IMG/VR virus record: IMGVR_UViG_2531839662_000028 | Span: 1 to 19,466 of that record | DNA from: a virus | Lineage: Duplodnaviria > Heunggongvirae > Uroviricota > Caudoviricetes | Reading direction: 5' to 3' (one strand) | Length of the DNA: 19,466 nucleotides | In this document: positions 928 through 10,080 of the stretch, piece by piece | Numbering within the stretch: position 1 is the first letter of the stretch | Layout: each line of letters starts with the position of its first letter | Program-made: the position numbers and the translations under genes | The notes under the pieces: generated by a model | What the model was told of the DNA's origin: nothing | Database searches by the model: none | The model's input: the letters and a program-made list of their open reading frames with translations, nothing else

Positions 928-2890
928 GTGTGCGGGTTTATCTGGTTTACCTGGTTCATTAATGGGGATTCACAAAAGGGCACAGAGAGAAGGATGGCTC
1001 AAGAGAAGAAGAGAAGGAATTAAAGGGGTTGCTTATGAATACCATATATCTTCTCTTCCTAACTCTGCCCGAGCTGAGTTTTTGATCCAACAAGGGGGAA
1101 TTGAAACAAGCCTGGGCCGTTTTGAAATCGCCCGCCCCACGCTGGAAGCCCATGATTATGATCGTGAGGCACTGTGGAGCAAATGGGATAACGCCAGCGA
1201 TTCCCAGCGCAGACTTGCTGAAAAATGGTTGCCTGCGGTTCAGGCTGCAGACGAAATGCTGAACCAGGGGATTTCAACGAAAACGGCATTTGCGACCGTT
1301 GCTGGACATTACCAGGTCAGCGCATCCACTTTGCGGGACAAATATTACCAGGTACAGAAGTTTGCGAAGTCTGACTGGGCGGCTGCGCTTGTTGATGGCC
1401 GTGGTGCATCCCGTCGCAACGTTCACAAAAGTGAATTTGACGAGGATGCCTGGCAGTTTCTGATTGCAGATTATCTGCGACCGGAAAAACCCGCCTTTCG
1501 CAAATGTTATGAGCGTCTGGAACTGGCAGCACGTGAGCATGACTGGAATATTCCCTCCCGTGCCACGGCCTTTCGCCGGATTCAGCAACTGGACGAGGCA
1601 ATGGTTGTTGCCTGCCGTGAAGGTGAACATGCACTGATGCATCTGATACCGGCACAGCAACGAACTGTGGAACACCTGGACGCCATGCAGTGGATCAACG
1701 GCGACGGTTATCTGCATAACGTCTTTGTACGCTGGTTTAACGGTGATGTGATCCGCCCGAAAACATGGTTCTGGCAGGATGTGAAAACCCGAAAAATTCT
1801 GGGCTGGCGCTGCGATGTGAGCGAGAACATTGATTCAATTCGCCTCTCGTTCATGGATGTTGTGACTCGCTACGGTATCCCGGAGGATTTTCACATCACC
1901 ATTGATAACACCCGTGGTGCAGCGAATAAATGGCTGACGGGAGGCGCGCCCAATCGTTACCGCTTTAAGGTAAAAGAGGACGATCCAAAGGGACTGTTTT
2001 TACTGATGGGCGCGAAAATGCACTGGACAAGCGTTGTTGCCGGTAAAGGCTGGGGCCAGGCAAAACCTGTTGAACGTGCTTTCGGTGTTGGTGGGCTTGA
2101 GGAATACGTTGATAAGCATCCGGCACTGGCTGGCGCATATACGGGGCCAAATCCGCAGGCAAAACCTGATAACTATGGCGACCGCGCTGTTGATGCAGAG
2201 CTGTTTCTGAAAACCCTTGCCGAAGGTGTGGCGATGTTCAATGCCAGAACAGGCCGTGAAACAGAAATGTGCGGGGGCAAACTCTCGTTTGATGATGTTT
2301 TCGAGCGTGAATACGCCAGAACGATTGTGCGTAAGCCAACCGAAGAACAAAAACGGATGCTGTTACTGCCTGCCGAGGCGGTGAACGTTTCACGCAAAGG
2401 CGAGTTTACGCTTAAAGTTGGCGGCTCCCTTAAAGGCGCGAAAAACGTTTATTACAACATGGCGTTAATGAATGCCGGCGTGAAAAAAGTTGTGGTCAGG
2501 TTTGATCCACAGCAGTTACACAGCACGGTTTATTGTTACACCCTGGACGGTCGGTTTATCTGTGAAGCGGAATGTCTGGCACCTGTTGCATTTAATGATG
2601 CTGCGGCAGGCCGCGAATATCGCCGCCGCCAGAAACAACTGAAATCTGCAACTAAAGCAGCCATTAAGGCGCAGAAACAAATGGACGCACTGGAAGTTGC
2701 TGAACTGCTGCCGCAGATAGCCGAACCAGCAGCGCCAGAATCAAGGGTTGTTGGTATTTTCCGGCCTTCCGGTAACACGGTGCAGGTGAAATACCAGGAA
2801 CCCGATGATGAATATGAAACTGATCGTGATGAATATCTGAATCATTCGCTGGATATTCTGGAACAGAACAGACGTAAAAAAGCCATTTAA
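902..2890 (+). CDS. A: Mu-type DDE transposase A, 662 aa
   Basis: Length and order (c-ner-A-B) as in Mu. N-terminal winged-helix domain resembles the repressor N-terminus. Catalytic triad candidates in Mu-equivalent positions: D268 (codon GAC 1703-1705, INGDGY), D335 (TIDNTRG), E391 (KPVERAF). Start overlaps ner end; AAGGGA lies 7 nt upstream of the ATG. Confidence 0.95.
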
Positions 2891-2928: not shown

Positions 2929-3867
2929 ATGAATATTTCCGATATTCGCGCAGGACTGCGCACGCTTGTAGAAAGTGAAAAAGCGACTTATGCACAAATT
3001 GCACGCGAGTCTGGCGTGGCCGCAGGAACGTTAAGCGCATTCGTGAATAACAAGTACAACGGCGACAATGAACGTGTTGCGCAGACGCTGGAACGCTGGC
3101 TGGAGAACTATCACCGTGCCGCAGAGCTGCCAGAACCACCACGTTTTGTGGAAACCAGAACAGCACGCCAAATCTGGACGAGTATGCGTTTTGCCAGCCT
3201 GACTGAAAGTATTTCTGTTATCTGCGGTAATCCAGGTGTGGGAAAAACTGAAGCGGCCCGCGAATTTCGTCGCACCAATAACAATGTCTGGATGATCACC
3301 ATTACCCCATCCTGTGCCAGTGTTCTGGAATGCCTGACTGAACTGGCTTATGAACTGGGAATGAATGACGCACCACGCCGTAAGGGGCCACTCTCCCGCG
3401 CTTTGAGACGCCGTCTTGAAGGTACGCAGGGGCTGGTCATTATCGACGAAGCTGATCATCTTGGCGCTGAGGTTCTGGAAGAACTCCGCCTGTTACAGGA
3501 GTCCGCCCGTATTGGCCTTGTTCTGATGGGGAATCACCGTGTTTATTCAAACATGACCGGTGGTAACAGAACGGTTGAATTTGCCCGCCTGTTTTCCCGT
3601 ATTGCCAAACGGACGGCAATCAATAAAACCAAAATTGATGATGTAAAAGCCATTGCGGATGCCTGGCAAATTACCGGCGAAAACGAGCGGGAATTATTAC
3701 AGCAGATTGCACAAAAGCCAGGTGCGCTTCGCATCCTGAACCACTCGCTGCGCCTTGCTGCCATGACCGCCCACGGTAAAGGTGAACGTGTTAATGAAGA
3801 TTATCTGCGTCAGGCTTTCCGTGAATTAGACCTCGACGTTGATATTTCAACCCTGCTGCGCACGTAA
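2929..3867 (+). CDS. B: Mu B-type transposition target-DNA activator (AAA+ ATPase), 312 aa
   Basis: 312 aa, immediately downstream of A. Walker A motif GNPGVGKT and a Walker B-like LVIIDEAD are read directly in the translation. Confidence 0.93.
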
Positions 3868-3880
3868 GGAGAGCGAAATC

Positions 3881-4108
3881 ATGATGTCACGGAATATCAA
3901 AATGGCAACGGAAGTAAAGAGCTGGTTACAGGAGCGCGGCAGCCACGTCAACGAATCCTGGCTGGGCGTGGCCCGCCCGGTGCTTGAAATTACCTGCCCG
4001 CCACCGGAGCTGGTCAGAAACGCTGTCAGGATTATGGAGCATAAATCAGGGGTTGCCCGTTCCGTATGGACGGCCCGCCTTAATGGTTGCCAGATTATCT
4101 GGCGTTAA
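3881..4108 (+). CDS. Small early protein in the kil position (Kil-like), 75 aa
   Basis: First ORF after B, as for Mu kil. AGGAG at 3867-3871 precedes the ATG at 3881; the track's longer ORF from 3839 overlaps the B coding end and is less likely. Function assigned by position only. Confidence 0.55.
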
Positions 4109-4140
4109 TAACGGCTTATTTATTTGTGAGGAATAACAAA

Positions 4141-4410
4141 ATGGCAAAAGTAATCTTTGAATTTAACCGCATGGAAGATGTTGAGTTTCAGAAAAAAGGA
4201 GGTTTCTTTGTAGGAATGAGTGTGCAACTGGAAGAACAGTCTCCTAAGGAGCAAACCGGACCGCATGACGTGATGGCAGGCATTATCAAGAGCATGGCTC
4301 CTGAAATTATTGAAAAAGCAACCCAGGAGTTGTTGAAGTCAGCCAGAGAACTTGGGCTGGAAGCCGAAGGCGAGTTATTCCGGTATAACCCGGATGCAGC
4401 CAAACATTAA
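4141..4410 (+). CDS. Hypothetical early protein, 89 aa, acidic
   Basis: ORF with GAGGA-type RBS upstream of the ATG at 4141; the track's longer ORF from 4087 lacks an RBS. Within the semi-essential early block. Confidence 0.55.
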   Translation: MAKVIFEFNRMEDVEFQKKGGFFVGMSVQLEEQSPKEQTGPHDVMAGIIKSMAPEIIEKATQELLKSARELGLEAEGELFRYNPDAAKH

Positions 4411-4427
4411 TTTCAGGGAAGGAGGCA

Positions 4428-4717
4428 TGATGATAATCCCTCGCAAAAGATGGTCACGCGAAGACCGGGAATTTATCGAAGCCAGTGTCGGGAAAATGAC
4501 CGTCGAGGAAATGGCGAAAAAACTGAACGTTGCCCCAACCGCCCTACAGGCACATGCCAGAAGGCACGGAATATCGTTGTGTGCATACCGGGTCAGTGAG
4601 CACGACAAATATTTGTGTCGTGAACTTTATAAAGAAGGGCTGGCTATTCATGTCATTGCCCAAAAGATGGAATTAAGCAATCGTGCTGTATCCAGCATTG
4701 TATACAGCGAATATTAA
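4428..4717 (+). CDS. Hypothetical small protein with helix-turn-helix-like segments, 96 aa
   Basis: GGAAGGAGG RBS at 4417-4425 immediately upstream of the ATG at 4428. Segments MTVEEMAKKLNVAPTALQAHARRHGIS and IHVIAQKMELSNRAV look HTH-like. Confidence 0.55.
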
Positions 4718-4737
4718 TTAACAGGAGCTTTATTTAT

Positions 4738-5262
4738 ATGGCTAAACCAGCAAAACGAATCAAGAGTGCCGCAGCAGCTTATGTTCCGCAATCCCGCGAT
4801 GCCGTGGTGTGTGATATTCGCCGGATTGGTGACCTGCAACGCGAAGCGGCACGACTTGAAACGGAAATGAATGACGCTATCGCTGAAATTACTGAGAAAT
4901 ACGCCTCACAGATTGCGCCCCTTAAAACCAGTATTGAAACCCTTTCAAAAGGCGTTCAGGGATGGTGTGAAGCGAACCGCGACGAACTGACGAACGGCGG
5001 CAAGGTGAAGACGGCGAACCTGGTAACCGGCGATGTGTCATGGCGTCAGCGCCCACCATCGGTAAGTATTCGCGGTGTGGATGCGGTGATGGAAACGCTG
5101 GAGCGTCTTGGCCTGCAACGCTTTATTCGCACGAAACAGGAAATCAACAAGGAAGCGATTTTACTGGAACCGAAAGCAGTCGCAGGTGTCGCCGGAATTA
5201 CAGTTAAATCAGGCATTGAAGATTTTTCTATTATTCCGTTTGAACAGGAAGCCGGTATTTAA
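4738..5262 (+). CDS. gam: Gam-like host-nuclease inhibitor / DNA-end binding protein, 174 aa
   Basis: 174 aa, the Mu Gam length. Translation MAKPAKRIKSAAAAYVPQ...WCEANRDELTNGGKVKTANLVTGDVSWR matches my recollection of Mu Gam. AGGAG at 4721-4725. Confidence 0.88.
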   Translation: MAKPAKRIKSAAAAYVPQSRDAVVCDIRRIGDLQREAARLETEMNDAIAEITEKYASQIAPLKTSIETLSKGVQGWCEANRDELTNGGKVKTANLVTGDVSWRQRPPSVSIRGVDAVMETLERLGLQRFIRTKQEINKEAILLEPKAVAGVAGITVKSGIEDFSIIPFEQEAGI

Positions 5263-5304
5263 TACCACCATTAATATTTAATTAGTTCACTTTCTTTTAA
5301 TTAT

Positions 5305-5334
5305 GGCGCGATGCGTCAGGGGATTGCTCGCGCC
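5305..5334 (+). other. GC-rich hairpin (GGCGCGA / TCGCGCC, 16-nt loop) in the gam-downstream spacer, no T-tract
   Basis: Inverted repeat read directly from sequence in the 98-bp gap. Could be an RNA processing/stability element or protein site; not a canonical intrinsic terminator. Confidence 0.3.
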
Positions 5335-5360
5335 TGAAACAGATTACTGAGGAATAAAAA

Positions 5361-5903
5361 ATGGTTGATGCAAAAGTTCTGAATGGTGTCAGCACATTAT
5401 TACGGGCTTACGGGCGTCTGACCTGCGGGGTTCTGGCTGAAAAAATGAATATGCTGCCCTCGTCAATGGTGTATTTCCTGCGTGATGCGGTTGATGCCGG
5501 AGTTCTCACTGAATGTAACGGATTTTATGACGTTCCGCGCCCTCGTCCAACGCCGCCAGTAAGACGAAACGCAACAACGGAACACCCCGCTGTTGATAAT
5601 GCTCAATGGTGCGCGTTCCGCCGCTCTTTGCCCTGGCTGGAAGGCAATGCCATTCCGGCATTGGCAAAAGAATTTGCGACAGGCGTACTGACCTGCGAGT
5701 CGGTTTACATCGTTGCTGAAGTGGATGACGAGATGTGCAAACAGGGGATGCCCCGTTTTGTGATGGCGTATATCGATATCCGGCTGGGGCGCTTTATTTG
5801 TGGTTCCAGTGGCTGGAATATCACCGACCACGTCATGCGCTATCTCATTCTTGATTATTCACCAGCTCCGGCAGCAACACAGGAAGTCAGTGAACATGAT
5901 TAA
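5361..5903 (+). CDS. Hypothetical early protein, 180 aa
   Basis: ORF with GAGGA RBS (5349-5353) 7 nt upstream of the ATG; enterobacterial-type codon usage; no recognisable catalytic motif. Confidence 0.6.
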   Translation: MVDAKVLNGVSTLLRAYGRLTCGVLAEKMNMLPSSMVYFLRDAVDAGVLTECNGFYDVPRPRPTPPVRRNATTEHPAVDNAQWCAFRRSLPWLEGNAIPALAKEFATGVLTCESVYIVAEVDDEMCKQGMPRFVMAYIDIRLGRFICGSSGWNITDHVMRYLILDYSPAPAATQEVSEHD

Positions 5904-6078
5904 GTCAATTGGCTTTGTCCTGCTGGTTGGCACCTGCGGGAGTGATGCCTGTGATGCTATCCCGGCAACAGAAAAAATCTGGCCCACAGAGCAGGCATGT
6001 ATGCAGGTGATGGAGCGCATACAAAAACGTTATCCCAGTGGAATCTTTTATTGCGAAGAGGTATTACGAAATGAGTAA
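5896..6078 (+). CDS. Small predicted secreted or lipoprotein-like protein with four cysteines, 60 aa
   Basis: Internal ATG at 5896 overlaps the stop of the preceding gene. N-terminus MIKSIGFVLLVGTCGSD resembles a signal peptide with a non-canonical lipobox-like LVGTC. Confidence 0.45.
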   Translation: MIKSIGFVLLVGTCGSDACDAIPATEKIWPTEQACMQVMERIQKRYPSGIFYCEEVLRNE

Positions 6079-6433
6079 GCATATTTATTACGACCCTAAA
6101 TATCGGGCTGAAATGCGGGCGCAACTGGTTGTCAGTGGATATACACCGGAGCAGGCCGATACAACTCTGACAGAACTGATGGGTGAGCTTCCATTTGATG
6201 AAGCTGAATATGAATACTGGCTGAAGCAGTTCAGGCTGGAAATTCTGGAAAACACCACACTGCCATCGCTGATAAGAATAATAAAAAGCGTTATCGACAA
6301 TGCCTGCTACAACGGTGATTGCTTGGCCGCAGCAATTGCGACCCATGCTCTGGTGAATCTGCTGGAGGTTACCGGCGCAGTTTTCCTGAATCCTGAAAAG
6401 GTATTAAGAGATGAAAATACAGATGATTACTGA
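6071..6433 (+). CDS. Hypothetical acidic small protein, 120 aa
   Basis: ATG at 6071 overlaps the preceding stop. AT-rich relative to flanking genes; D+E clearly exceeds K+R. No recognisable motif. Confidence 0.55.
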   Translation: MSKHIYYDPKYRAEMRAQLVVSGYTPEQADTTLTELMGELPFDEAEYEYWLKQFRLEILENTTLPSLIRIIKSVIDNACYNGDCLAAAIATHALVNLLEVTGAVFLNPEKVLRDENTDDY

Positions 6434-6746
6434 TGCTGATTTAATGGCTGCAACCTTAATTTCCAGTGGCATGTCAGAACAAAAGGTAAATGATTTCCTG
6501 GATAATGTCGTATACCAGCACTATGAGCAGGCCAGAGAAAATTTAATTTCAGAAAAGCGCACGATGATTGCTGAATCATTAAGCCCTGCATGGATTATCG
6601 AAGAGTTGCGGGGAATCATTGCCAGTCAGGATAAAGTGGCGGCAGTTGCCGCCCTTGATGTGCTACAGCGAATGAGTAAAGAGCTATTCAACACTGAATT
6701 AATTTTAAAATCCGGGGGACATAATGAATCGCACATCCCTGATTAA
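6411..6746 (+). CDS. Hypothetical acidic small protein, 111 aa
   Basis: ORF overlapping both neighbours by ~23 nt; AT-rich; about 20 acidic versus 10 basic residues. Confidence 0.55.
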   Translation: MKIQMITDADLMAATLISSGMSEQKVNDFLDNVVYQHYEQARENLISEKRTMIAESLSPAWIIEELRGIIASQDKVAAVAALDVLQRMSKELFNTELILKSGGHNESHIPD

Positions 6747-7275
6747 ATTAATTCATGTTGCACGTCGGGAGTTGCAACTTGACGATGACACTTACCGCGC
6801 TTTTCTGGTGCAGTGCACGGGCAAAACCAGTTGTCGCGAGCTGTCCGTTGCACAACTGGAACAAGTGCTCGATGCCATGAAAGAGCGCGGTTTTAAGAAA
6901 CAGAAAAAATATCCCCGCCGTCGTTTTAAGGGGCATGTCACACCACGCGAGAAGATTTACAAAATCTGGCAGCAGATGTTTCTTGACGGTTTCGTCTCCG
7001 ATATCAGCGACGCTGCGCTGGACAAATACGTTGAGCGCCTGACAGCCAGACGTAATGGCGGACAGGGTGTTTCCACGCTGGCATGGTGTCACGGGGAATC
7101 GTTGCAGGTTGTGCTTGAAACGCTCAAACAGTGGCATATGCGCTGCATCCGTGAAGCCTTTGCCCGACATGGTGTGCCTTTACCTGTGAGCGAAACCGGG
7201 CGGGAGCTGCGCGGCTATGATGCACTGACCAGTGCGTATGCCCGCGCACGAAACAGCGGGAGAATTGCTGTATGA
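6724..7275 (+). CDS. gemA: GemA-like gene expression modulator (DUF1018-type), 183 aa
   Basis: 183 aa, directly upstream of and overlapping mor (ATGA overlap) as in Mu. Translation MNRTSLIKLIHVARRELQLDDDTYRAF... fits the GemA family pattern as I recall it. Confidence 0.8.
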   Translation: MNRTSLIKLIHVARRELQLDDDTYRAFLVQCTGKTSCRELSVAQLEQVLDAMKERGFKKQKKYPRRRFKGHVTPREKIYKIWQQMFLDGFVSDISDAALDKYVERLTARRNGGQGVSTLAWCHGESLQVVLETLKQWHMRCIREAFARHGVPLPVSETGRELRGYDALTSAYARARNSGRIAV

Positions 7276-7682
7276 AACAGATGAAAGAGCAGGATTTATT
7301 CGAAGACTTCCGGGACGACAGCGTTCTGGAATATCTTCACGATTATCAGGAAAAATATGTTTACCCGGCGCTACTTTCAGAACTGAATGCTCTGTTGCGA
7401 CAGGAACTGATAAGGCTTGGGGTTAACCCGGTCCATTCCCTTGAGTTGGTAGTGGCGATTTGTAATCATATCGGTGGGATTCAGGTATATGTTCCTAAAG
7501 GGAAAATACTGGAAAATCTTATCAGAGACATGCGCATCTGGCGTGATTTTGATGGGAAAAACGTAGCGGAACTGGTGCAGCGTTACAAAGTGACATACAA
7601 AACGGTATATCAAGCTATCAAAAGAATGCGAAGGCTGGAGCGTGGAAAATATCAAATGCAACTGTTTAAGGATGAGTCATGA
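7272..7682 (+). CDS. mor: Mor/C-family transcription activator (Mor by synteny), 136 aa
   Basis: Acidic N-terminus and C-terminal HTH (...NVAELVQRYKVTYKTVYQAIKRMRR...) typical of Mor/C activators. Position immediately after gemA. Confidence 0.85.
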   Translation: MKQMKEQDLFEDFRDDSVLEYLHDYQEKYVYPALLSELNALLRQELIRLGVNPVHSLELVVAICNHIGGIQVYVPKGKILENLIRDMRIWRDFDGKNVAELVQRYKVTYKTVYQAIKRMRRLERGKYQMQLFKDES

Positions 7683-8158
7683 AATACTTTCCTCTTATAC
7701 TTTTACTGAGCGTATTTTGCGCTAATGCGGCAAAGTTGCCAGCTGAAGATGTCATCAAAAAACGTCTGACAGAAAAAGATCTCATTGCACTAAATAGCTG
7801 GAAGCCTCTTAAGGGAGGCGATTCTATTAAGAACGGTGGAACTGAAACTGCTCACAGCAAATTCGGGGTATTTACGATCAATAATAAAGTCGTCAGCTCA
7901 AGGACGACGGTAAAGGATTTTGAAAACAATCCTTCAGGTGTGTTGTCTTCCTTTGTAGCATGCTCGCGGGTTGCAGAGTCAGCAATTGGTGAACTAACAG
8001 AGAAGCAGCAGAAACGAATTATTGACATGGTAGTTTCAGCTACAAAAGTTGAAGGGTATGGGTTAACTGACGTGATACAGGGTTTTCTCATGCAAACCAA
8101 ATTTCTCAAGATGGGTAACGATATGGTAATAGATTGCTCCATCAAAGGAGATGAGTAG
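7679..8158 (+). CDS. Secreted protein of unknown function, 159 aa (moron-like cargo)
   Basis: N-terminal signal peptide MKYFPLILLLSVFCANAA. Visibly lower GC than flanking genes. ATGA overlap with the mor stop; followed by a strong intrinsic terminator. Confidence 0.7.
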   Translation: MKYFPLILLLSVFCANAAKLPAEDVIKKRLTEKDLIALNSWKPLKGGDSIKNGGTETAHSKFGVFTINNKVVSSRTTVKDFENNPSGVLSSFVACSRVAESAIGELTEKQQKRIIDMVVSATKVEGYGLTDVIQGFLMQTKFLKMGNDMVIDCSIKGDE

Positions 8159-8177
8159 TTATCTTCCCTTAATTCAA

Positions 8178-8203
8178 TGAAGCCGGTAAATCCGGCTTTT
8201 TTT
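8178..8203 (+). terminator. Intrinsic terminator-like hairpin + T7 tract (TGAAGCCGG-TAAAT-CCGGCTTTTTTT), copy 1 of a repeated element
   Basis: 7-bp GC-rich stem, 5-nt loop, seven Ts, 20 nt after the stop of the secreted-protein gene and 56 nt before the endolysin start. Identical 26-mer recurs at 15904-15929. Confidence 0.65.
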
Positions 8204-8258
8204 ATGCCTCCGGCACCATGAAGCAGACCACGTTTAACTCTGCTTCACAGGTGTTTTT

Positions 8259-8846
8259 ATGGAAAATCAAAAATTCTCCCCGGCCTTTGAACATGCGCTG
8301 AATTTTATTCTGCGTCCTGATATCGAAGGCGTTTATGTCAATGACCCCACTGACCGTGGCGGTGAAACCAAATACGGCATTTCTGACCGCCGCGACGGTG
8401 TGATTGACGGCAAAACCGATGTCAGCGGTGACGGCAAACCGGATACCCGCATCAAAGATTTAACCCGCGAACAGGTCGCGCAGATTTACTGGCGCGATTA
8501 CTGGCTGCCTGCCGGATGTGACCAGTGGCCTGATGGCGTGGCGATGTTTGTTTTCGATGCAGCGGTTCAGCATGGCGTTAAAAAAGCCATCAAAATTTTG
8601 CAGGAAGCCACTGATATCAATGCCGATGGCATCATCGGCCCGCGCACCCGCAGGGCCGTGAACCTGGCTGACCAGAACTGGTTGCTGACCCGCTGTATTG
8701 TCCGTCGTTCCCGCTTTTATGCCGAAATCATCAAATCAAAACCCGCCCAGGGCAAATACCTGAACGGCTGGTTTAACCGCATGGAAAAACTGACCGACGC
8801 CTGTCTGGAAATCATCGACAACGCGCCGTCCACCACGCGGGGGTGA
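8259..8846 (+). CDS. Endolysin, GH108-type muramidase with C-terminal peptidoglycan-binding domain, 195 aa
   Basis: N-terminal motif EGVYVNDPTDRGGETKYGI matches the GH108 signature; C-terminal DGIIGPRT resembles the peptidoglycan-binding module. No signal peptide or TM segment. Confidence 0.85.
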   Translation: MENQKFSPAFEHALNFILRPDIEGVYVNDPTDRGGETKYGISDRRDGVIDGKTDVSGDGKPDTRIKDLTREQVAQIYWRDYWLPAGCDQWPDGVAMFVFDAAVQHGVKKAIKILQEATDINADGIIGPRTRRAVNLADQNWLLTRCIVRRSRFYAEIIKSKPAQGKYLNGWFNRMEKLTDACLEIIDNAPSTTRG

Positions 8847-8847
8847 T

Positions 8848-9099
8848 ATGGGCAAAGGCTGGGATGCCTCACTGAAAGCCGGGCGGCGTGACCGCCTGCG
8901 TCAGGAGGTTCTGCACCGCATGGCCGGAGGTCCGTCCCCGAAACCGCTGGACTATACCGGCCATGACGGCACACACGCCAGCTACTACATGCGTGGCTGG
9001 AACTCCGTGGATACACGGGACATTTTCTGGCAGTGCCAGAAGTACAGGGAAAAATTCAATGTGGAAAAAGGTAATGAACAAAATTTTAAAACTGTGTGA
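8848..9099 (+). CDS. Hypothetical basic protein in lysis cassette, 83 aa
   Basis: ATG 2 nt after the endolysin stop; good enterobacterial codon usage (CTG, GCC, AAA) through most of the ORF; no TM segment. Confidence 0.45.
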   Translation: MGKGWDASLKAGRRDRLRQEVLHRMAGGPSPKPLDYTGHDGTHASYYMRGWNSVDTRDIFWQCQKYREKFNVEKGNEQNFKTV

Positions 9100-9484
9100 C
9101 TGGCTGCTTTGTTCCCGACTGATGAGAACCCCATGGCCGCTGGCCGGACTGACACTCTGCATGTTCATCATCAGCATGTTATGTGGCTGGCGATCGTTCG
9201 TGTTGATGTTGTTGTCCTTTGCCGGGGTGGTGTTGTTTTCATACAGCGCAAGCCTCGGGAATGTGCCATTTCGCCTGCTGCCTGAGGTCCGTTACCGGGC
9301 TTTTGGTCGCCACATCATCGTGTGGTCATGGGTGGTCTGGGCGCTGGGATATTTCTGCTGCGTCTTCAGCACGCTGATGATGGTGTCACCGGTGCATCCG
9401 GTGTTCTGGCTGTGTGGTGGCTGTTGCGGCGGTCTGCTCTGTCTTCAGCGTTATCTGTATGGAGGTTTCCCGTGGATCCGTTAA
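9059..9484 (+). CDS. Multi-pass membrane protein (about four TM segments), Cys/Trp-rich; candidate holin, 142 aa
   Basis: Only + frame covering 9100-9470 with host-like codon usage. Hydrophobic segments PWPLAGLTLCMFIISMLCGW, FVLMLLSFAGVVLFSY, IIVWSWVVWALGYFCCVF, VFWLCGGCCGGLLCL. Start at internal ATG 9059 (AGGGA upstream) chosen because the upstream part of the track ORF overlaps the better-supported frame-1 gene. Confidence 0.55.
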   Translation: MWKKVMNKILKLCDWLLCSRLMRTPWPLAGLTLCMFIISMLCGWRSFVLMLLSFAGVVLFSYSASLGNVPFRLLPEVRYRAFGRHIIVWSWVVWALGYFCCVFSTLMMVSPVHPVFWLCGGCCGGLLCLQRYLYGGFPWIR

Positions 9485-10080
9485 CCCTTTCAGGCATCGC
9501 CTCTGTTCTGCTGAAAGCCGGGCCGGGGCTGATTCGTTCCGTCGGGCGCTGGTTTGGTGGCAGTACATCTGCCGCCGCTGACTCGGTGGCCGGTATGGTG
9601 GAAAGCGTCCGGGAAAGCCTTCCCGTTGCTGAACAGCAACGCATTCTGGAACAAAAACTGGTGATGCTGTCACCGGAGCAACTGGTGCAACTGGAAACCC
9701 TGAAAATTCAGCTGCAACAGCTGGAGGTGGAACGGCAGAAGCTGGTGCTGGCTGACCAGCAGGCCGCACACCACGAACAGCAGGAAACCATCCGCAATGG
9801 TGACAACGCCACGGACAGCTATGTGCGCCAGACACGCCCGCTGCTGGCCCGCCTTTCCTGTTACAGCAGTCTGGCCTATGTGCTGTTGCTCTCCTGCGGC
9901 CAGATTGCCGGAGCCATTGCCGGTGCCAGAGGTATCACGCTGCATATGCCATCACCGGACTGGGATATCACGCTGATGTTGCTTACCCCGGCGCTGGGCT
10001 ATCTCGGTGTAAGAACCCTTGACGGCTTTGCCCGTTACAGCAAATCAAGCCGTCACAAAATGTCTGCGGGGCCGAAATGA
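9472..10080 (+). CDS. Membrane-associated coiled-coil protein, lysis-associated candidate (spanin- or holin-like), 202 aa
   Basis: GTG start at 9472 preceded by GGAGG (9462-9466). Hydrophobic N-terminus, Q/E/L-rich coiled-coil middle, C-terminal hydrophobic segments. Confidence 0.5.
   Translation: MDPLTLSGIASVLLKAGPGLIRSVGRWFGGSTSAAADSVAGMVESVRESLPVAEQQRILEQKLVMLSPEQLVQLETLKIQLQQLEVERQKLVLADQQAAHHEQQETIRNGDNATDSYVRQTRPLLARLSCYSSLAYVLLLSCGQIAGAIAGARGITLHMPSPDWDITLMLLTPALGYLGVRTLDGFARYSKSSRHKMSAGPK

Follow-up and report, generated by a model that had tools for sequence, protein, structure and literature searches.

Tandem paralogous early genes of an Escherichia coli Mu-like prophage and their possible relationship to a convergent DUF2513-like gene

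Introduction

The closest described parallel to the genes analyzed here is the Tab/anti-Tab system of the Pseudomonas Mu-like phage JBD26, which was established experimentally (Patel et al., 2024; PMC10884400). Anti-Tab is encoded by a small plus-strand gene that overlaps its upstream neighbor and is co-transcribed with the lytic operon, and Tab by a convergent minus-strand gene that depends on a promoter of its own, is expressed by the prophage and blocks related phages (PMC10884400). Anti-Tab binds and neutralizes Tab and is sufficient alone to overcome it; anti-Tab can occur on its own, and Tab has not been found without anti-Tab (PMC10884400).

A second parallel is provided by the genes that phage Mu carries in the slot directly before gemA, gp14 and gp15 (Mup14, Mup15), where a plus-strand gene of ~100 aa is convergent and overlapping with a minus-strand gene. 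The two are kept together, at 71% and 54% identity, in >25 E. coli genomes. True homologues of one of the genes studied here are found in SfMu (gp14) and in Yersinia phages, all of them annotated as hypothetical and none characterized. Ocr, ArdA and SPO1 Gp46 are comparable in a more general way, as small, acidic, early phage proteins. The gam-gemA interval to which the genes belong has long been a 'dark matter' of phage Mu biology. Small accessory early-region phage genes are known as a kind of element, and the sequences of the two genes described below are present in databases as hypothetical proteins and as PHROGs of unknown function. We report their paralogy, the junction-mediated cassette structure of the locus, and the conserved pairing of their family with a convergent partner gene, the logic of which resembles that of Tab/anti-Tab.

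Results

Genomic context of ORF1 and ORF2

The window, the whole stretch of 19,466 nucleotides that was analyzed, covers the leftmost 19.5 kb of a chromosomal Mu-like prophage of the porcine strain E. coli UMNF18, and is 100% identical to NZ_AGTD01000001.1 from about position 3,087,316. The genes are arranged in the order c, ner, A, B, small early genes, gam, gp11, ORF0, ORF1, ORF2, gemA and mor, with lysis and head genes downstream of mor (Table 1). DNA similarity of 83-88% to Mu, D108, SfMu and the Yersinia Mu-like phages covers gp11 and gemA but not the ORF0-ORF2 interval, the Mu equivalent of which contains gp12, gp13, gp14 and the minus-strand gene gp15.

Table 1. Features of the Mu-like prophage locus in the UMNF18 window.
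Feature	Position	Strand	Description
c repressor	1-510	minus	First gene of the window
gam	4738-5262
gp11	5361-5903
ORF0	5896..6078	+	60 aa, Cys-rich, hydrophobic N-terminus, phrog_16556; constant left anchor of the variable slot
Junction repeat, copy 1	6055..6074	+	GAAGAGGTATTACGAAATGA; ORF1 RBS and ATG, ORF0 3' end
ORF1	6071..6433	+	ATG start, 120 aa; FAM paralog of the ORF1 subtype (phrog_27371), predicted five-helix protein
Junction repeat, copy 2	6395..6414	+	GAAAAGGTATTAAGAGATGA; ORF2 RBS and ATG, ORF1 3' end
ORF2	6411..6746	+	ATG start, 111 aa; FAM paralog of the ORF2/SfMu-gp14 subtype (phrog_1988), predicted five-helix protein
Hairpin GGCGGC-AACT-GCCGCC	6638..6653	-	GC-rich, inside ORF2 at the invariant AAxAA motif
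gemA (gp16 family)	6724..7275	+	Constant right anchor of the variable slot
mor	7272-7682

The original prediction of two small overlapping ORFs of 120 and 111 aa upstream of gemA was confirmed with respect to their coordinates, and the NCBI PGAP annotation of UMNF18 contains both CDSs, each labeled 'hypothetical protein'. ORF1 and ORF2 overlap by 23 nt (6411-6433), ORF2 and gemA by another 23 nt (6724-6746), and ORF0 and ORF1 by 8 nt. No plus-strand promoter-like site was found across 3800-8400. The first convincing plus-strand terminator lies at 8179-8199, past the gene downstream of mor, and is preceded by one weak terminator-like match on the plus strand at 6360-6377, inside ORF1. This indicates that the early polycistron includes ORF1 and ORF2 as ordinary members: both are plus-strand genes coupled to the lytic operon by the 8- and 23-nt overlaps.

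Among 5426 complete E. coli genomes, ORF1 was present in 5, ORF2 in 10 and both in 4, and a query spanning ORF0 to gemA retrieved fragments, mostly of the flanks, in 61. Programmed frameshifting from ORF1 into ORF2 was considered and rejected because each gene occurs without the other.

Composition and selection

ORF1 has the lowest pI among the window genes (4.48; D+E 16.7%, K+R 8.3%, net charge -10), and ORF2 the second lowest in the early region (4.84; D+E 15.3%, K+R 9.0%, net charge -7). The products had been described as markedly acidic, which is correct for the pI values but not for the content of acidic residues, since a D+E fraction of this size is ordinary (terL, 16.6%; o4141, 18%) and the low pI results mainly from the small number of basic residues. 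The charge is modest, and part of it is held in the acidic C-terminal tails (..RDENTDDY in ORF1 and ..NESHIPD in ORF2), each of which is the 5' end of the next gene read in another frame. Likewise, the AT-richness ascribed to the two ORFs is apparent against their immediate neighbors, with a GC content of 45.2% (ORF1) and 41.1% (ORF2) vs. 51.4% for gp11 and 52.9% for gemA, but mor (42.8%) and o7679, which follows mor (41.0%), are similar.

The dN/dS ratio was 0.38 for ORF1 (3 alleles) and 0.16 for ORF2 (10 unique alleles), with 0.14 for gemA, and full-length homologues of 20-45% identity were observed in Klebsiella, Citrobacter, Salmonella and Shigella prophages. ORF1 and ORF2 are real genes under purifying selection and not chance ORFs.

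A family of predicted all-alpha proteins shared by ORF1 and ORF2

Both proteins gave full-length profile matches to phage protein families, ORF1 to phrog_27371 (E 2.6e-80 over 1-120/120) and ORF2 to phrog_1988 (E 3.8e-43 over 1-106/106). The earlier statement that neither could be assigned to a family was superseded in this respect, although both PHROGs are of unknown function and searches of Pfam, PADLOC, PDB sequences and folds with ORF1 and ORF2 produced no usable match. Homology to a housekeeping phage function was also looked for, and none was found for either protein. ORF2 is 41% identical over its full length to SfMu gp14 (YP_009152200; E 3e-24), with further homologues in the Yersinia phages vB_YpM_3/5/6/23. 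The closest relative of ORF1 in the phage database, and the sole one, is a 102-aa ORF of Klebsiella phage Kp4866-3 (36% identity), and an exhaustive HMMER scan of 1.84 billion representatives with ORF1 returned 4 proteins. Apart from the Klebsiella type and close E. coli copies, these included P0020, a 3495-aa repeat adhesin, which was discarded because its score merely added up repeat matches.

No similarity between ORF1 and ORF2 was detected by BLASTP, and their paralogy emerged with profiles only. An HMM of the ORF1 and Klebsiella subtypes matched ORF2-type proteins at pairwise E-values of 2e-7 to 1e-6 (ORF2, 4e-7), and the reciprocal HMM matched the Klebsiella subtype at a pairwise E-value of 4e-7, while unrelated neighbor proteins in the same pairwise test scored 6e-4 to 0.1. 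Comparison of the ORF1 and ORF2 types by hhalign gave a P-value of 1.3e-4, and the ORF1-type HMM, run over all ORFs of 30 loci, retrieved the ORF2-type ORFs at E-values of 6e-5 to 2e-4. The alignment of the two types is collinear end to end. Its invariant residues are Ala, Gly, Leu and a single Glu, together with an AAxA motif, which suggests a structural rather than a catalytic pattern. AlphaFold monomer models of ORF1 and ORF2, of moderate confidence (pLDDT 72.7 and 66.9, pTM 0.53 and 0.33, respectively), predict the same five-helix pattern. Based on the profile scores, the collinear alignment and this shared predicted pattern, we consider ORF1 and ORF2 to be distant tandem paralogs of one predicted all-alpha family, termed FAM.

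Several weaker likenesses were set aside. DUF6308 matches to ORF2-type members (best E 0.0023) fell below threshold and were uninformative, and for the helix-G-helix motif at the N-terminus, similarity to RuvA domain III, GpsB/DivIVA and the TerS HTH was non-significant (E 0.28-0.5). Neither ORF1 nor ORF2 had a significant fold or profile match to terminase small subunits or HTH proteins.

A profile search of 5.8 billion proteins identified 35 FAM clusters, the named sources of which are all Escherichia, Shigella, Salmonella and Klebsiella; loci fetched around the partner gene described below added Citrobacter and two more divergent FAM subtypes. The only two plasmid matches are both within Mu-like insertions. 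As far as found, FAM is restricted to Mu-like elements of Enterobacteriaceae. In 16 IMG/VR loci and the reference phages, FAM invariably occupies the final plus-strand position ahead of gemA, in one of two layouts: it either overlaps gemA directly, as in the window, or is followed by a convergent minus-strand gene.

A junction repeat brackets the ORF1 cassette

ORF1 is bracketed by two copies of a 20-nt imperfect direct repeat, GAAGAGGTATTAMGARATGA, which belong to family D2 of the repeat analysis (85% identity, spacing of 340 nt). Each copy combines the final codons of one gene with the RBS and start codon of the next. Across four prophages, this junction was seen at the start of ORF1, of ORF2 and also of o129, an unrelated gene of 129 aa. 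In the prophage ETEC1732, exactly the 340 nt separating the two repeat copies are absent, and as a result ORF0 ends there in ..NENTDDY, the tail that ORF1 has in the window. Similarly, o129 in RM11911 ends in ..NESHIPD like ORF2 because this tail is the 5' end of gemA in another frame. ORF1 is a cassette bounded by the 20-nt RBS+ATG junction repeat and is cleanly missing from sibling prophages. The gene overlaps and part of the acidity of ORF1 and ORF2 are by-products of these modular junctions.

The slot between ORF0 and gemA is occupied by unrelated genes on near-identical backbones: many sibling prophages with 93-98% identical gemA have o129 or the gp14/gp15 pair, and o129 also occupies this place in the second Mu-like prophage of UMNF18. 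The distribution of ORF1 and ORF2 across related prophages is patchy. As had been anticipated, the two genes lie where the semi-essential early region of Mu-type phages varies most. They are accessory genes, absent from close siblings.

A convergent partner gene of FAM

In the second FAM layout, the partner is a minus-strand gene of 131-138 aa, here named REV, the 3' end of which overlaps the FAM 3' end by 30-40 nt. REV proteins match phrog_585 (E 1e-11 to 1e-15). The Klebsiella REV also matches DUF2513 (PF10711) over the full length of the domain (3-97/100), though weakly (E 0.014; 16.2 bits, the gathering cut-off being 29.6), and PGAP names REV-B a 'DUF2513 domain-containing protein'. Searches of PADLOC-DB with eight proteins, representing ORF1, ORF2, ORF0, REV, Mu gp15 and o129, matched no family at E <= 0.1. 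Literature on the functions of the Mu SEE region, DUF2513 and Mu anti-defense yielded nothing on the ORF1, ORF2 or REV genes.

A convergent FAM gene accompanies 18 of the 19 REV loci in Mu context, and the sole exception has an IS transposase exactly at the FAM position. FAM is adjacent to REV-B in all five complete E. coli genomes that carry REV-B, with no match to REV alone, and a plasmid-borne FAM copy adjoins a DUF2513 gene. REV homologues that lie outside Mu-like elements had no FAM beside them. Loci with FAM but no REV are common, and the viable phages SfMu and Yersinia vB_YpM carry FAM and no DUF2513 REV. The observed co-occurrence is thus asymmetric, as in Tab/anti-Tab: in Mu context REV is nearly never alone, and FAM often is.

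The convergent minus-strand partner is absent from the window, and it was found with relatives of ORF1 and ORF2 and in four other subtypes. In STEC383, a 90%-identical copy of ORF1 is followed by a convergent REV. In the IMG/VR loci L015-L017, copies of ORF2 with 86-92% identity (83% in L018) are followed by REV-A. Since the relatives of ORF1 and ORF2 are paired with different REV types, the window holds the FAM halves of two different cassettes and no REV. The possibility that REV is supplied by the second Mu-like prophage of UMNF18 was ruled out by the presence of o129 there instead.

At least six cognate FAM-REV subtype pairs were distinguished. Over six subtype pairs, sequence identities correlate between FAM and REV (r 0.64), with r 0.11 for FAM and gemA and -0.21 for REV and gemA. 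STEC383 and the IMG/VR locus L016, for example, share 95% identity in gemA, 21% in FAM and 34% in REV. Mean identity between subtypes is 28% for FAM, the fastest-evolving of the three, 46% for REV and 48% for gemA. The genes upstream of the FAM-REV pair are reshuffled and the pair itself is intact. The orientation of REV requires a separate promoter; the search upstream of REV for a sigma-70 promoter yielded nothing convincing, with weak matches only (<=7/12 in most subtypes).

Discussion

Comparison with described systems

Compared by architecture only, FAM-REV resembles Tab/anti-Tab in its convergent layout, its asymmetric co-occurrence and the transposable Mu-like element in which it resides. 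The Tab pair is located between terminase genes, whereas FAM-REV occupies the early region before gemA; the host clades, Pseudomonas and the enterobacteria, are also different. Furthermore, in the window the minus-strand partner is missing and the 'antidote' is duplicated. SfMu gp14 and its Yersinia homologues share ancestry with ORF2, with ORF1 in the same superfamily, but SfMu has one FAM copy followed by the Mu gp14/gp15 pair, and the window two FAM copies. Despite their similar arrangement in the same slot, Mu gp14 and gp15 have no detectable homology to FAM or REV, nor was any homology detected when Mu gp12, gp13, gp14 and gp15 were compared with ORF1, ORF2 and REV.

FAM as a candidate antagonist of REV

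The synteny, asymmetric co-occurrence and co-variation of FAM and REV, in a layout like that of Tab/anti-Tab, suggest that ORF1 and ORF2 may be protein-binding antagonists of REV-type prophage proteins. We give this reading a probability of roughly one in three. According to it, FAM proteins would be small (~100-120 aa), all-alpha, non-enzymatic products of the early (Pe) operon, translationally coupled to their neighbors through the conserved 20-nt RBS+ATG junction, which may double as the recombination joint for cassette swapping. They would act stoichiometrically, with the DUF2513-like REV as the cognate target. REV would be produced by the resident prophage in lysogens and serve in exclusion, defense or regulation. 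FAM would be synthesized early in the lytic cycle and would bind and neutralize REV. The UMNF18 prophage would have lost REV, or never had it, and kept two 'orphan' FAM genes that might allow growth in cells carrying REV-encoding relatives.

A more far-reaching proposal, which we regard as doubtful, is that FAM and REV form an undescribed two-gene defense/antidote module of enterobacterial Mu-like prophages, with two orphan antidotes in the UMNF18 prophage. In such a module, REV made by the lysogen would block related incoming phages or control the prophage, and FAM would be a fast-evolving early antidote of matching specificity. The UMNF18 prophage might then possess a two-specificity counter-exclusion arsenal, assembled by cassette exchange at the 20-nt junction, and Mu gp14/gp15, a non-homologous pair in the same position, could represent another module of this type.

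If the antagonist reading is true, it provides a testable function for a whole group of hypothetical genes carried by Mu-like prophages of enterobacteria, for the widespread DUF2513 family and possibly for Mu gp14/gp15. It would also extend the principle of 'prophage defense plus self-antidote' beyond Pseudomonas to E. coli, Salmonella and Klebsiella, and would show how orphan antidotes are gathered via cassette exchange. If it is wrong, ORF1, ORF2 and their kin stay ordinary uncharacterized accessory genes.

Several observations count against the antagonist reading. The window has no REV, so the proposed target is absent there, and the second Mu-like prophage of UMNF18 is also without REV. 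No PADLOC defense model matches REV, and without a convincing REV promoter its expression in lysogens is assumed. The viable phages that carry FAM only are compatible with an antagonist, and also with a REV-independent function. In addition, the observed linkage and co-variation of FAM and REV could be plain co-inheritance of two neighbors in a recombination cold spot.

Alternative functions

It is also possible, though we think it unlikely, that ORF1 and ORF2 are host-takeover or anti-defense proteins that bind a chromosomal host target, REV being a mere neighbor. Aqs1 and Tip of Pseudomonas Mu-like phages are comparable host-targeting proteins. Small early-region proteins of Mu-like phages provide such precedents (PMC10884400), and the early-operon position of FAM, its patchy presence in sibling prophages, its fast divergence (mean identity between subtypes well below that of gemA) and the viability of phages that have FAM without REV all agree with a target of this kind. 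However, a host target leaves unexplained the near-absence of FAM-less REV in Mu context and the co-variation of FAM and REV subtypes irrespective of the backbone, and neither sequence nor fold proposes what the target would be.

Quite unlikely, in our estimate, is a role as accessory factors of the phage's own program, for example as modulators of GemA or of Mu replication. Such a role would explain the fixed position and the translational coupling to gemA, FAM being always just upstream of gemA and overlapping its start in the REV-less variants; moreover, classical work on Mu mapped replication-enhancing ('arm'-type) functions between gam and gemA. Nevertheless, the family is wholly missing from Mu and D108, and the FAM subtype does not track the gemA subtype (r 0.11). 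The finding that near-identical backbones carry unrelated slot genes, o129 or gp14/gp15 in place of FAM beside almost the same gemA, disfavors this role further.

The mechanism put forward in the original prediction, that the two proteins are acidic DNA mimics (Ocr/ArdA-like) blocking restriction-modification or other DNA-targeting host defenses, is very unlikely. ORF1 and ORF2 are small, early, accessory and of low pI, and loose mimics with a pI of ~4.3 exist, such as SPO1 Gp46 (PMC8892312). The negative charge of ORF1 and ORF2 is nonetheless much lower than that of Ocr, ArdA and SPO1 Gp46, is partly encoded by the junctions and is not conserved: across FAM the net charge ranges from -3 to -10 with a pI of up to 5.6, a single acidic residue is invariant, and neither fold nor sequence resembles a known mimic.

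Finally, an absence of protein function, with conservation due to nucleic-acid features (the junctions, an embedded hairpin) or to hitch-hiking, is extremely improbable because of the purifying selection on both genes and in view of collinear full-length homologues that keep helix pattern and length across genera, even though the GC hairpin and the best-conserved peptide motif fall at the same place and the C-terminal tails are clearly junction by-products.

What survives of the anti-defense interpretation is its general part, without the mimic or anti-restriction mechanism, which the charge argues against. Small accessory early genes in a variable slot, absent in siblings and without housekeeping homology, make a role of the counter-defense type plausible for ORF1 and ORF2, and the pairing of FAM with a convergent minus-strand gene in relatives lends it some support. 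This association sharpens the broader idea of an accessory early gene in a conflict role, itself plausible.

The hairpin inside ORF2 recurs in relatives ~30 nt downstream of the REV stop codon, where it may be a candidate REV terminator or an RNA 3'-end structure. In the window it has no REV to serve, its U-tract is weak, and its stem is largely a by-product of Ala codons.

Modules and gene junctions of the variable slot

In the majority of E. coli prophages of the type studied here, the small gene ORF0 is the constant gene on the left of the variable slot, the interval before gemA that holds either genes of the FAM family, to which the overlapping acidic ORF1 and ORF2 belong, or other cassettes. 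ORF0 contains a lipobox-like motif, LVGTC, and, judged from its sequence, may encode a small lipoprotein or secreted protein. Unrelated cassettes are preceded by the same 20-nt junction, comprising a ribosome-binding site (RBS) and ATG, which is used repeatedly, and the cassette lying downstream dictates the C-terminal tails of ORF0, ORF1, ORF2, and o129, a 129-aa gene unrelated to FAM. The junction has the look of a joint at which modules are exchanged by recombination.

A second Mu-like prophage is present in the UMNF18 chromosome, outside the window (NZ_AGTD01000001.1, about 1,467,760-1,468,513). Its slot before gemA is occupied by o129, and carries neither FAM nor REV, the DUF2513-like minus-strand gene that is convergent with FAM in related prophages. 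In Mu and more than 25 complete E. coli genomes, the same slot is occupied by a non-homologous pair of gp14-like and gp15-like genes, which remain paired at 71% and 54% identity, respectively. This pair is a second module of the 'forward + convergent reverse' kind. REV without FAM was found in a Mu context in a single locus, L041, which carries an IS-type transposase gene.

Features of the slot and of the surrounding regions
Feature	Location	Strand	Remarks
ORF0	window 5896-6078	+	60 aa, Cys-rich, hydrophobic N-terminus; phrog_16556 (function unknown)
Conserved 20-nt gene junction	window 6055-6074 and 6395-6414		RBS + ATG
GC-rich hairpin	window 6638-6653	-	inside ORF2, at codons of the invariant AAxAA peptide motif
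159-aa signal-peptide protein	window 7679-8158		phrog_38744; stands where C would be
Terminator	window 8179-8199		after the 159-aa signal-peptide gene
Multi-pass membrane protein gene	window 9074-9484	+	downstream of GH108 endolysin
Mu gp14-like/gp15-like pair	L055 1376-1895; Mu NC_000929 7655-8162	+/-	convergent, overlapping
IS-type transposase gene	L041 2940-3279		inserted directly after REV, at the expected place of FAM
Hairpin GGCGGTG...CACCGCC	L008 about 2920-2970; L005 about 6675-6735; L029 about 2435-2495		conserved stem, variable loop
Truncated zinc-binding dehydrogenase gene	L004 2182-2811, left of window		beside yphB; adjoins the prophage left end

Hairpins near FAM and REV

The minus-strand hairpin within FAM may be an embedded terminator for REV. 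In the REV-carrying loci, this hairpin lies about 30 nt beyond the REV stop. The ORF1 counterpart of the ORF2 hairpin is weaker (window, about 6325-6350), and its stem is degraded in this REV-less prophage, whereas the ORF1-type copy of the E. coli prophage STEC383, where REV is present, has a perfect 9-bp stem. A compensatory GC-to-AT change is found in the hairpin of SfMu gp14, the ORF2 homologue. However, stems of this kind are favored by Ala codons in any case. Three REV subtypes share the second hairpin, GGCGGTG...CACCGCC, which is flanked by the start of REV on one side and by the ribosome-binding site of gemA on the other.

Downstream region and insertion site

In Mu, D108, and SfMu, mor is followed, before the lysis genes, by a second Mor/C-family activator, C. 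The corresponding interval of the window (7272-8260) lacks one. A strong AT-skew trough (-0.5, window 9150-9600) matches the multi-pass membrane protein gene, which probably belongs to the lysis cassette. The early region (3839-8158) has a GC content of about 47%, and the lysis and head region is richer in GC, at 55-64%. This rise across the window suggests that a Mu-like early arm has been combined, in mosaic fashion, with a late arm of different origin. The truncated dehydrogenase gene at the left end fits a Mu-type insertion of the prophage into a gene of the host.
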